Shown here: piece by piece, positions 587-5,587 of the stretch
Position numbering within the stretch: the first letter of the stretch is position 1
Layout of the letters: the number at the start of each line of letters is the position of its first letter
Origin: a phage
Length of the DNA: 39,736 nucleotides
Direction: 5' to 3' (one strand)
Sequence record: PZ379179.1
The notes under the pieces: model-generated
Told to the model about the DNA's origin: nothing
The model's database searches: none
The model's input: the letters and a program-made list of their open reading frames with translations, nothing else
Program-made: the position numbers and the translations under genes

Positions 587-736
587 GTACCACATCGAAA
601 CAACGGTGATGACCAACACTGAATGGTCTACCTGAAGTCCTCTGACTGAAGGGAATGCTCTTTAACAATCTGGATAAACTCTTAATGTGCGCCGATAGCG
701 ACTAACTACAGGGCCTTTGAGTCTACATCTGAAGGC

Positions 737-756
737 CCTGACTGATAGTCACTAAC
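737..756 (+). promoter_or_regulatory. Conserved early-region box CCTGACTGATAGTCACTAAC, copy 1
   Basis: 20-nt box also at 1054-1073 and 1782-1801, each preceded by ACTACAGG and 8-29 nt upstream of an early gene start; candidate RNase III processing or regulatory site. Confidence 0.35.
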
Positions 757-772
757 TTAAAGGATGGACACT

Positions 773-1018
773 ATGAAACACTTAAGCACAATCACTAATC
801 GCAATGAAGTATTCGTGAACACTAAAGGTTATGCGTGGATTCAGCTTAAAGAGGTGACAGGAGCGCGTCACCGTGTGGTAGTGCGCAAGGTATCAAGCAA
901 GCAGTTCAGCAACTACAGCGTCGATACTGTGCGTATAGACAACGAGACATACCTGATAGACTCGCAGATAACCGTGAGTCCTACAGTGGGCGTCTCAGCT
1001 CCTTATTTCGCTAACTGA
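773..1018 (+). CDS. Hypothetical early protein, first gene of the genome (81 aa)
   Basis: Track ORF 764..1018; the AGGA overlaps the ATG at 764, so the ATG at 773 (8 nt downstream) is the better start. No recognisable domain. Confidence 0.55.
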   Translation: MKHLSTITNRNEVFVNTKGYAWIQLKEVTGARHRVVVRKVSSKQFSNYSVDTVRIDNETYLIDSQITVSPTVGVSAPYFAN

Positions 1019-1053
1019 GAGTGATTAACTACAGGTCGTTAGACTGATAGCGG

Positions 1054-1073
1054 CCTGACTGATAGTCACTAAC
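1054..1073 (+). promoter_or_regulatory. Conserved early-region box, copy 2
   Basis: Identical 20-mer CCTGACTGATAGTCACTAAC, 29 nt upstream of the Ocr-like gene start. Confidence 0.35.
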
Positions 1074-1101
1074 ACATACTTAACTTTGAGAGGATATAAC
1101 T

Positions 1102-1605
1102 ATGGAACGTAATGCTAACGCATTCTATGAGCTGCTGGCTGCAACCGTTGAGGCATTTATCGAGCGTATTCAGTACGACCACCTGACTCAAGATGACGAC
1201 TACAGCGCTGCGCTGCATGAGGTCGTAGACGGTCAGGTTCCACACTATTACCACGAGATTTTTACGGTGATGGCTGCTGATGGTATAGACAACGAGTTCG
1301 AAGACTCTGGGATGATACCTGAAACCAAGGACGTAACGCGTATCCTACAAGCTCGCATCTATGAGGCACTTTATAACGACGTGTCTAATAGCTTGGATGT
1401 AGTCTGGTTTGAGGATGAAGAGGCAGACGAAGAGGATGAATATTGGGTAGTTGACGCTAAAACAGGCGCAATAATTGTGCAAGCTGTAGCTCTTGAGGTC
1501 GCTACTGCATGTGCCAAGGTCAACTATGTGATAGGTCGCCACCTTCAGGTGGAAGACATCAATGATAACGTAGTGTTTGACCCTGCTGCTGAGGACTGCG
1601 AGTGA
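1102..1605 (+). CDS. ocr: Ocr-like anti-restriction DNA-mimic protein (T7 gp0.3 homolog) with C-terminal extension
   Basis: 167 aa; [43 protein letters not shown] matches recalled T7 Ocr ([43 protein letters not shown]). Acidic run [10 protein letters not shown], then ~50 extra residues absent from the 117-aa T7 protein. GAGAGGA RBS 7 nt upstream. Confidence 0.85.
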   Translation: [167 protein letters not shown]

Positions 1606-1781
1606 TGGTAACTTATGGCCTCTGCCAGCACCACGTCACTAACGCCCGGCTTATGGTCAAGACCGGGCAGTTAGACCACGATTGGGCTATGCGTCTCTTG
1701 AAAGTGGTCTACAGGAGACGCAAGCGTATACACGACAGTTTACACGCTAAGTGACAGACTACAGGTCATCAATGCTGGTGG

Positions 1782-2905: not shown

Positions 2906-5587
2906 ATGAGCGTCATCTCTATTGACAAGCACGACTTCTCTGATGTATCGAACGCCATTGAGCCGTTTAACCTACTGGCTGACCACTACGGGCAAGACCT
3001 TGCAGTCAAACAGCTTCAGCTTGAGCACGAGGCATACACTGAAGGCGAGCGACGTTTCATCAAGAACCTTGAGAGACAGACTGAGCGAGGGGAACTGGCA
3101 GACAATCAGGTCGCCAAGCCTTTGATGCAGACTCTGGTCCCTAAGATTGCGCAAGCCGTCAAGGAGTGGCATGAAGGTCCAGACGGGAAGCTGTCAACCT
3201 CTCGTCCGAGCGTAGCGTTCACCATGTTGAGCACTGAAGAGAAGGCCGTAAAGGTCCGCTCTTTGCGCATCTCCTGCGAGTCTGCTGCGGTTATCATACT
3301 GAAGGTCATACTCTCCAAGCTGGTCAAGCCTGAAGGGATACCGATTACACCGATGGCCTCAGCGATAGGTCGCACACTTGAGGACGAAATCCGCTTCGGT
3401 CGCATCCGTGACAAGGAGAAAGAGCACTTCAAGAAGGCGATAGCTGATAACCTGAATAAGCGGGCCGGGGCGTCCTACAAGAAAGCCTACATGCAAGCGG
3501 TCGAGGCATCCATGCTGGAGCAAGGCCAACTGGAAGATGCGTGGGGGACTTGGAGTCCGACCGAGGCTGTCCACGTTGGAATCAAGATGCTGGAGATTGT
3601 CATCCAGTCCACACAACTGGTCGAGCTTAAGCGTTACGGTGCTGGCAATGCAGCGGCTGACGTTGAGATGGTCCACCTGTCAGACTTCTGGGTCAAGAAG
3701 ATGGCACAACGAGGATTCAGCCTTGCGGGTATAGCTCCAGTCTACCAGCCTTGCGTCGTTCCACCTAAGCCGTGGACTGGTGTCGTAGGCGGTGGGTACT
3801 GGGCCAAAGGACGCAGACCATTACCACTGATTCGCTTAGGGTCTAAGTCTGCGGTAGCACGCTACGAAGACGTGTATATGCCTGAAGTCTATGACGCTGT
3901 GAACATCATTCAGAATACACCTTGGAAAGTGAACAAGAAGGTTCTGGAAGTGGTGAACATGGTCGAGAAGCTGAACAACACGCCTATTGATGACATCCCT
4001 CAGATGGAACCGCTGAAGCCTGAGGACTATGCGGGTGAGACTGAAGAAGAACTCAAGGCATGGAAGAAGGCTGCTGCTGGTATCTATCGCCGCGAGAAGG
4101 CCAGACAGTCACGAAGATTGTCACTGAGCTTTATCGTCAACCAAGCGAACAAGTTCTCTCAGTTCAAGGCCATCTGGTTCCCGTATAACATGGACTGGCG
4201 CGGTCGCGTCTACGCTGTGCCGATGTTCAACCCTCAGGGTAACGACATGCAAAAGGGTCTTCTGACTCTGGCAGTCGGTAAGCCTATTGGTGCTGATGGT
4301 TTCAAATGGCTGAAGGTCCACGGTGCAAACTGCGCGGGTGTCGATAAAGTCACCTTCGAGGAGCGTATCAAGTGGGTGGAAGATAACCACGAAAACATCA
4401 TGGCTGCTGCCAAGGCACCGATGGATAGCATTGAGTGGTGGGGCAAGTTAGACTCTCCGTTCTGCTTCCTAGCGTTCTGCTTCGAGTATGCTGGCGTAAT
4501 GCACCACGGCTTGTCTTACTCCTGCTCGCTGCCGATAGCGTTCGATGGGTCCTGCTCTGGGATTCAGCACTTCAGCGCTATGCTTCGCGACCACATCGGT
4601 GGACATGCAGTAAACCTGACGCCATCCGGTAAGGTACAAGACATCTACCGAATTGTGTCTGACCGCATTGAGGAGCAGCTTAAAGTCCTGCTGATTAACG
4701 GTACTGACAACGAGATGGTCACTCACGAGGATAAGAAAACTGGTGAGATTACCGAACGTATCAAGCTGGGGACACGAGAGCTGGCCCGTCAGTGGCTGAC
4801 ATACGGTATGTCACGCAAGGTCACTAAGCGTTCAGTCATGACTCTGGCATACGGGTCGAAAGAGTACGGCTTCGCAGACCAAGTTTACGAGGACATCGTG
4901 ATGCCAGCGATTGACTCAGGGTATGGCGCTATGTTCACCGAGCCAAGCCAAGCGTCTCGATTCATGGCTAAGATGATTTGGGAAGCTGTGAGTGTGACCG
5001 TAGTTGCTGCGGTTGACGCGATGAAGTGGCTTCAAGGTGCTGCCAAGCTGCTGGCTGCTGAAGTGAAGGACAAGAAGACTGGCGAAATCCTGAAGCCATG
5101 CCTTCCGGTACACTGGGTAACACCTGATGGTTTCCCTGTCTGGCAGGAATACCGCAAGAAGGATACCACTCGTCTGAACCTGATGTTCTTAGGGTCATTC
5201 AACCTTCAGCCTACAGTCAACAAAGGAACGAAGAAAGAGCTTGACAAGCACAAGCAGGAGTCAGGCATTAGCCCTAACTTCGTCCACTCACAAGATGGTA
5301 GCCACCTGCGGAAGACTGTAGTCCACACTCACCGCAAGTATGGCGTGATGTCATTCGCAGTGATTCACGATAGCTTCGGGACCATCCCTGCTGACGCTGA
5401 GTATCTGTTCCGTGGTGTCCGTGAGACGATGGTCGAGACATACCGCGATAATGATGTGCTGCTTGACTTCTACGAGCAGTTCGAATACCAGCTTCATGAA
5501 AGTCAGCGCGACAAGTTGCCTGAGCTTCCGAAGAAAGGTAAACTGAATATCGAAGACATCTTGTCTTCAGACTTTGCATTCGCTTAA
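2906..5587 (+). CDS. Single-subunit DNA-directed RNA polymerase (T7 gene 1 homolog)
   Basis: 893 aa; collinear with recalled T7 RNAP, including AFDGSCSGIQHFSAMLRD, VIHDSFGTIPAD and the C-terminal DFAFA. AAGGA RBS 8 nt upstream. Confidence 0.97.
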   Translation: MSVISIDKHDFSDVSNAIEPFNLLADHYGQDLAVKQLQLEHEAYTEGERRFIKNLERQTERGELADNQVAKPLMQTLVPKIAQAVKEWHEGPDGKLSTSRPSVAFTMLSTEEKAVKVRSLRISCESAAVIILKVILSKLVKPEGIPITPMASAIGRTLEDEIRFGRIRDKEKEHFKKAIADNLNKRAGASYKKAYMQAVEASMLEQGQLEDAWGTWSPTEAVHVGIKMLEIVIQSTQLVELKRYGAGNAAADVEMVHLSDFWVKKMAQRGFSLAGIAPVYQPCVVPPKPWTGVVGGGYWAKGRRPLPLIRLGSKSAVARYEDVYMPEVYDAVNIIQNTPWKVNKKVLEVVNMVEKLNNTPIDDIPQMEPLKPEDYAGETEEELKAWKKAAAGIYRREKARQSRRLSLSFIVNQANKFSQFKAIWFPYNMDWRGRVYAVPMFNPQGNDMQKGLLTLAVGKPIGADGFKWLKVHGANCAGVDKVTFEERIKWVEDNHENIMAAAKAPMDSIEWWGKLDSPFCFLAFCFEYAGVMHHGLSYSCSLPIAFDGSCSGIQHFSAMLRDHIGGHAVNLTPSGKVQDIYRIVSDRIEEQLKVLLINGTDNEMVTHEDKKTGEITERIKLGTRELARQWLTYGMSRKVTKRSVMTLAYGSKEYGFADQVYEDIVMPAIDSGYGAMFTEPSQASRFMAKMIWEAVSVTVVAAVDAMKWLQGAAKLLAAEVKDKKTGEILKPCLPVHWVTPDGFPVWQEYRKKDTTRLNLMFLGSFNLQPTVNKGTKKELDKHKQESGISPNFVHSQDGSHLRKTVVHTHRKYGVMSFAVIHDSFGTIPADAEYLFRGVRETMVETYRDNDVLLDFYEQFEYQLHESQRDKLPELPKKGKLNIEDILSSDFAFA

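Follow-up and report, generated by a model that had tools for sequence, protein, structure and literature searches.

Ocr, the product of T7 gene 0.3, is the textbook DNA-mimic anti-restriction protein; it also blocks BREX and triggers PARIS. The T7 protein dimerizes through an interface to which F54 and V78 belong (numbered throughout as in T7 Ocr, counting Met1). In the T7 structure V77 lies at the interface and helix D heads away from it, with the two C-termini at opposite far tips of the dimer. In a 39,736-nucleotide stretch of phage DNA (PZ379179.1; the window), the gene 0.3 homolog continues well past the end of a T7-type Ocr. We asked whether the additional segment is real, what it consists of and what it may do. 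An earlier reading of the sequence (the original prediction) had proposed an Ocr homolog with an added C-terminal module, perhaps for dimerization or as a second anti-defense activity.

The window comprises the essentially complete genome of an Autographiviridae phage of the K1F-like type (genus Kayfunavirus). Over 25 kb it shows approximately 96% identity to vB_EcoP-101136BS1 and LM33_P1. Phages such as LM33_P1 and K1F are in therapeutic use or serve as K1-capsule models.

An Ocr protein with a non-canonical architecture

The gene 0.3 product is 99.4% identical in amino acid sequence to gp0.3 of the Escherichia phage LM33_P1 and, over the full length, 79.9% identical to the 169-aa gp0.3 of K1F. 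The proposed homology to Ocr held: Pfam PF08684 (ocr) matched residues 13–95 with 97.5 bits (E = 7.2e-28; gathering score 25 bits), and PHROG 2568 (ocr-like anti-restriction) matched the protein with E = 4e-51. Using phmmer, residues 15–113 aligned with T7 Ocr (PDB 1s7z, E = 1.6e-23), in an alignment that is weak and gapped past about residue 95; the original prediction had extended the T7 match over residues 1–115. Residues 95–113 are unlike T7 helix D, with a 13-residue stretch and an acidic run in place of the end of that helix.

The homologous core (residues 1–103) shares the properties of a DNA mimic. It contains 21 D/E and 5 K/R (pI 4.1), and in the AlphaFold2 (AF2) model it forms long helices at residues 6–25, 35–59 and 75–93, which follow one another as in T7 Ocr. 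Of the two dimer-interface residues, F54 never varies among the 119 long forms of alignment A1, and V78 is present in at least 90% of them. F54 is required for Ocr dimerization (PMC9122126). The gene also sits where its T7 counterpart does, at the beginning of the early region, with a gene 0.4 homolog and a T7-type RNA polymerase gene (2906–5587) downstream.

The similarity ends at the C-terminus. T7 Ocr stops after approximately 117 residues in a short acidic tail, while the window protein has a 48-residue domain, predicted to be folded (pLDDT 91), inserted there after the acidic stretch, and so departs from the canonical single-domain architecture of about 110–117 aa. On these comparisons we classify the gene 0.3 protein as an Ocr family member with a non-canonical architecture. 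The entire extra segment (YWVV...DCE) comprises residues 114–167, encoded by nucleotides 1441–1602 and followed by the stop codon at 1603–1605. Thus, an extension of about 54 residues does lie outside the T7-type, Pfam-defined Ocr; its C-terminal sequence is present as originally quoted, but it begins at 1441, six nucleotides before the position (1447) first given. Below, "tail" refers to the C-terminal domain. Features of the region are listed in Table 1.

Table 1. Features in and around gene 0.3; positions are those of the window
Feature	Position	Strand	Basis
Hairpin element upstream of gene 0.3	1017..1074	+	Repeat families D1/D2, RNA fold
Gene 0.3, long-form Ocr	1102..1605	+	ORF list and sequence; ATG start, 167 codons, TGA stop
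Ocr DNA-mimic core, residues 1–103	1102..1410	+	PF08684, 1s7z, composition, AF2
Polyacidic linker, residues 104–113 (10 residues)	1411..1440	+	pLDDT below 50 at residues 104–110
C-terminal orphan domain (predicted), residues 114–161	1441..1584	+	Tail-only AF2; conservation in alignments A1, A2 and A3; dN/dS
Terminal acidic peptide AAEDCE	1585..1602	+	Sequence; GAGGA within its codons at 1591–1595
T7 gene 0.4 homolog	1605..1754	+	ORF list; ATG overlaps Ocr stop (TGATG)

The extension is translated and under selection

Searches with the tail (tblastn) recovered it from at least 72 phage records, among them K1F, LM33_P1, CLB_P1, Citrobacter phage SH3, Hafnia phage yong1 and Providencia phage EPr2. 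LM33_P1 was identical over the complete 62-residue tail query, which included part of the linker. In a collection of 5.8 billion protein clusters, 118 of the best 120 clusters were proteins of 162–179 aa that carry the tail. Among Ocr-bearing phage records as a whole, the domain was present in about 82 of 573, roughly one in seven.

Nei-Gojobori estimates for five long genes gave dN/dS values of 0.16–0.57 for tail codons 114–161 and 0.10–0.28 for core codons 1–103 (dS 0.25–0.54). Since these values are well below 1, the codon comparisons indicate that this frame is translated through the tail and that purifying selection acts on it. The tail evolves faster than the Ocr core, which could reflect relaxed constraint instead of an arms race.

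These results also dispose of the notion, named in the original prediction as a possible refutation, that a sequencing frameshift or read-through had lengthened a normal 110–117-aa Ocr: although contigs L003–L005, from three related metagenome samples, show that frameshifts do happen at this spot (an additional G in a GGG run yields ORFs of 117 and 59 aa), the probability of an artifact is negligible, as K1F, LM33_P1 and at least 70 further genomes, all sequenced independently, have the same frame, amino acids are conserved in it while synonymous sites diverge, and the tail has a confident predicted fold. The split in L003–L005 is a mutation or assembly error in those samples and does not point to a separate gene. 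We conclude that the C-terminal domain truly belongs to the protein and is maintained by selection.

The tail is predicted to fold autonomously

A tail-only AF2 model built from an alignment of 35 sequences had a pLDDT of 91.1 and a pTM of 0.73. The predicted fold is β-β-α-β-β, with strands at residues 114–118, 124–129, 148–151 and 157–159 and a 13-residue helix at 131–143. In the full-length model (alignment of 119 sequences), whose global confidence is low (pTM 0.43), the tail had a pLDDT of about 80 while residues 104–110 of the linker fell below 50. The models thus predict a compact domain that folds by itself and is tethered by a flexible linker, consistent with the proposal that the extension is an added module, separated from the core by a low-confidence acidic stretch. 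The description of this segment as hydrophobic is fair for the window's allele, which is mildly so (GRAVY +0.37), though the tail is net acidic in all subtypes; "helix-prone" applies to the single helix of a mostly β fold.

Conservation within the tail is uneven. Its signatures are the motif EYWVVD..TG and a 12-residue hairpin at residues 150–161 (1549–1584), 11 of whose 12 positions are invariant or at least 90% conserved in the 119 sequences. Other conserved positions are L131, A134, K139 and Y142, spaced every three to four residues along the helix, and G145; the remaining helix positions and portions of strand 2 are variable. A catalytic or metal-binding histidine was ruled out, as the position of the histidine differs between subtypes. 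We take the hairpin motif to be superficially like the DxNDN calcium-binding motif of cadherins, and N-cadherin (1ncg) was among the non-significant Foldseek matches of the tail (E = 3.9). A scan for regulatory DNA found no promoter-like or terminator-like sites in the tail-coding stretch.

The linker varies in length among homologs from a single glycine (CLB_P1, VVWFEGEYWVVD) to approximately 24 residues. At its 3′ end, the window's linker bears GAAGAGGAT, one arm of a direct repeat used in natural deletions (see below). Mirror-image aromatic motifs lie on either side of the linker (DVVWFE...EYWVVD; 1393–1458, residues 98–118). They recur in the divergent tails that we call type B (IEWYE...QWYVI) and type C (IVWWE...VWFVM), and only one glycine separates them in CLB_P1. 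Pairing of DVVWFE with EYWVVD in a β-hairpin that docks the tail on the Ocr tip was unsupported by the full-length AF2 model, and DVVWFE is present in short forms too.

The tail has no detectable relatives outside Ocr

Searches with the tail alone found no family match in Pfam, PHROGs or NCBIfam and none among PDB sequences. With a HMMER profile built from 35 tails, we searched 1.84 billion representative proteins and detected no stand-alone or differently fused tail. Three matches to long repeat proteins (E ≤ 0.001) were judged spurious; in the two that we inspected (P0124 and P0125), the alignments ran through short repeated acidic motifs. No tail relatives were found in plasmids or, with the type-A alignment, in 185,579 species genomes, and a tail search of IMG/VR returned only the three Ocr loci that our other searches had identified. 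Word-indexed searches with the tail recovered only fragments of Ocr genes.

Three short proteins were considered as stand-alone tail genes and rejected. P0002 (59 aa) is the product of the +1 G frameshift. P0127 arose by an internal deletion of Ocr, in which the Ocr body is missing and nine N-terminal residues are joined to half of a type-C tail. The sequence of P0001 (41 aa) looks like an internal-start fragment of the tail.

Structure comparisons were similarly unrevealing. Foldseek searches with the tail model gave nothing significant against the PDB (best E = 0.73) or BFVD (best E = 0.013), where many small uncharacterized phage proteins had TM scores of 0.6–0.76 to the model. The tail did not group with the ClpS/L7-L12 CTD fold by Foldseek or by profile comparison: hhalign with E. 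coli ClpS gave a probability of 0.04%, and the tail has one helix and four strands where that fold has three helices and three strands. It presumably lacks the helices that form the N-degron pocket in ClpS. We treat the tail, on its predicted structure, as an orphan small α/β domain whose nearest shapes are generic. Among these shapes, as it happens, are some phage inhibitors that work through direct binding, such as the T4 antitoxin Dmd and AcrIF9; the likeness of the model to these two is a resemblance only, below usual significance (Foldseek E = 1.4–2.1, sequence identity 6–15%), and both are stand-alone proteins, unlike the tail, which is fused to a DNA mimic.

The long architecture is already present in public records of K1F-like phages, though unremarked. 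The gp0.3 proteins of K1F and LM33_P1 ("ocr-like anti-restriction", 167–169 aa) have the same long architecture, with no structural difference from the window protein, and their entries are annotated solely as Ocr. A full-text literature search covering K1F-like phage genomes, Ocr mutagenesis, PARIS and anti-defense catalogs turned up no description or test of the C-terminal domain; as its coverage was incomplete, an earlier description is possible. The paper on Hafnia phage Ca reports a 169-aa "DNA mimic ocr" whose best BLAST match spans only 112 residues, without comment. The original prediction had asked if this length is the norm in a characterized Ocr subfamily: among K1F-like phages it is, but theirs is a subgroup without experimental characterization.

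Three tail subtypes and apparent repeated loss of the domain

Scanning IMG/VR with the Ocr core and translating the matches revealed a second, divergent tail in Stenotrophomonas phage IME15. With tblastn, this type B tail was also found in Escherichia phage Ebrios and Aeromonas phages, and a further type, C, in Kosakonia phage Kc166A. Tails of types B and C are about 30% identical to that of the window (type A), while their Ocr cores are 76–79% identical. All three types directly follow the Ocr acidic tail and can be aligned without large gaps; the residues common to them are W, A, G, V-E-(D) and P. On these alignments, we conclude that the tail domain is conserved in three divergent subtypes found in several Studiervirinae lineages.

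Short Ocr forms occur in T7, Klebsiella phages, Vectrevirus and phages of Proteus and Morganella, and also within the K1F group itself. The short Ocr proteins of EcoDS1 and other K1F-group phages (110–114 aa) are encoded by genes that are 86–95% identical to the long form in core DNA, share its ...EEDCE end and overlap gene 0.4 in the same way (TGATG). What they lack is precisely the domain, together with the linker in some cases, and their junctions lie in GAGGA repeats, consistent with deletion. We distinguished at least four junctions: WFEAEEDCE, WFEPEEDCE (EcoDS1) and two 13-residue junctions. The two longer ones retain the complete linker of a particular long-form type, followed by ...DCE, and fall inside a GA(A/G)GAGGA(T/C) repeat that flanks the domain. 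The fourth junction corresponds to the window's own linker, and one short form (L018) keeps exactly that linker. Long and short forms are intermingled when compared by core DNA: the long K1F gene and a short gene (L015) are 95.5% identical, while long-long pairs are 85–92% identical, a pattern also seen in a neighbor-joining tree. In Salmonella phage PRF-SP5, a T7-like Ocr end is followed by a remnant of the last strand only (SVVFDHAAAEDCE; strand VVFDHAAAEDCE).

The simplest reading of these sequences is that an old domain has been lost repeatedly through in-frame deletions between the short GAGGA repeats on either side of it, though part of the picture could also have been produced by lineages recombining with one another.

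All K1F-group forms, short and long, had both the ...EEDCE end and the TGATG overlap. Within the codons of this end lies GAGGA, nine bases 5′ of the gene 0.4 ATG, which we read as the likely ribosome-binding site of gene 0.4. DNA alignment showed that the gene 0.4 homolog adjoins both long and short Ocr genes, and its ortholog in L004/L005 matches PF26807 (Phage_T7_GP04). Every long, short and rearranged K1F-group Ocr probably ends in ...EEDCE because of this site.

Other rearrangements were also observed. In Escherichia phage IMEP24 (L009, 562–1122), a 186-aa "Ocr" has only the first half of the tail, which runs into the C-terminal 50 residues of an early ORF further downstream. This ORF is a separate gene in SH3, pO2, SFPH2 and Dev2. 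The deletion behind the IMEP24 fusion arose naturally; it destroys the domain and takes out gene 0.4. P0101 has the tail joined to the C-terminus of gp0.4.

What the tail may do

The explanation that we favor, with a probability of roughly 0.4, is that the tail serves as an accessory module for protein binding, working in cis with the DNA mimic. Since the tail was never found alone or on another partner, it probably works together with the Ocr mimic. In the Ocr dimer, an acidic tether would suspend one tail domain from each distal tip, where it could bind a protein. It might contact the subunits that flank the DNA groove of a target enzyme, giving wider or tighter inhibition, or it might hide Ocr from the host's Ocr-sensing systems. 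Contact would most likely be made through the acidic, nearly invariant hairpin at residues 150–161. We propose that the tail is dispensable, and often deleted, because its benefit depends on which defenses the host carries.

A plausible though rather unlikely alternative, which takes up the second anti-defense activity of the original prediction, is that the tail is a self-sufficient anti-defense or host-takeover module with a target unrelated to Ocr, fused so as to be expressed at the very start of infection. Such a module would explain an autonomous predicted fold on a flexible linker, nearest structural neighbors that are small α/β phage inhibitors (Dmd and AcrIF9), and variable exposed helix residues together with recurrent loss, both typical of accessory anti-defense genes. 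However, stand-alone copies or other fusions would then be expected, and none turned up in the protein representatives, plasmids, genomes or IMG/VR; moreover, all three subtypes hold the same position behind the acidic tail of Ocr.

The cis-acting module has a more ambitious version, which we regard as unlikely: that the tail founds a new family of counter-defense domains tied to the DNA mimic, shielding Ocr from sensors such as PARIS (AriA) or gripping a subunit beside the DNA groove. If this were true, the subunit gripped could be HsdR or partners in BREX or DISARM, one protein would disable enzymes beyond the reach of plain Ocr, and repeated loss and quick surface change would be traces of a continuing arms race at the mimic's tips.

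The tail might also have little or no adaptive function. It could serve as a stabilizing cap for the disordered acidic C-terminus or be a near-neutral passenger, a reading that is distinctly unlikely, as is its corollary that the tail persists chiefly since deletions must spare the ribosome-binding site of gene 0.4. Frequent loss, through at least five types of junction, is also compatible with a nearly neutral passenger, and the GAGGA site does lie within the last Ocr codons. Truncations of the T7 Ocr C-terminal tail (Ocr99 and Ocr109) are tolerated, with little anti-restriction activity lost (PMC3439906). Against this, dN/dS is well below 1 over 48 codons, the 12-residue hairpin hardly varies across more than 100 clusters and all three subtypes retain the domain despite divergence to about 30% identity. 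A neutral insert of 150 nt would not be expected to stay in frame and foldable across such divergence.

A role in dimerization, as originally suggested, found no support. An additional dimerization or oligomerization module, which would link monomers or chain dimers, is improbable. Conserved hydrophobic residues occupy both alternating registers of the first two strands (YWVV and IIV) and the lone helix would cover only one side of the sheet, such that, going by the sequence pattern, an exposed apolar surface is possible. But F54 and V78 are retained, so dimerization is already supplied, the C-termini would sit at opposite tips of the dimer, judging from the T7 structure, and many close phage relatives function with short forms, which are common in nature.

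Since natural pairs with and without the tail exist in otherwise near-identical genes, a function of the tail could be tested quickly. If the tail changes which defenses Ocr defeats or triggers, it would bear on host-range prediction for therapeutic Autographiviridae and define a new anti-defense domain family. If it has no measurable effect, it would be an ordinary lineage-specific elaboration.

Surroundings of gene 0.3 in the early region

A hairpin-forming intergenic element is present in three copies in the window (694–757, 1017–1074 and 1752–1802), each just 5′ of an ORF start (764, 1102 and 1809, respectively). The predicted RNA fold of 1018–1085 has a free energy of −23.3 kcal/mol (z = −4.7). 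The three copies look like T7-type RNase III processing sites, and processing at two of the hairpins would leave genes 0.3 and 0.4 together on the mRNA in between.

Four other early ORFs (764–1018, 1809–2045, 2108–2482 and 2482–2808, encoding 84, 78, 124 and 108 aa) had no Pfam match. Between gene 0.4 and the RNA polymerase gene, no ORF is long enough to encode a T7 gp0.7-type kinase. In two phages with a type B long Ocr, Ebrios (L046, 154–1377) and Aeromonas phage KFSA9 (L048, 12–1383), the same early region also contains a T3-type SAM hydrolase gene, which is annotated as a methyltransferase in Ebrios.
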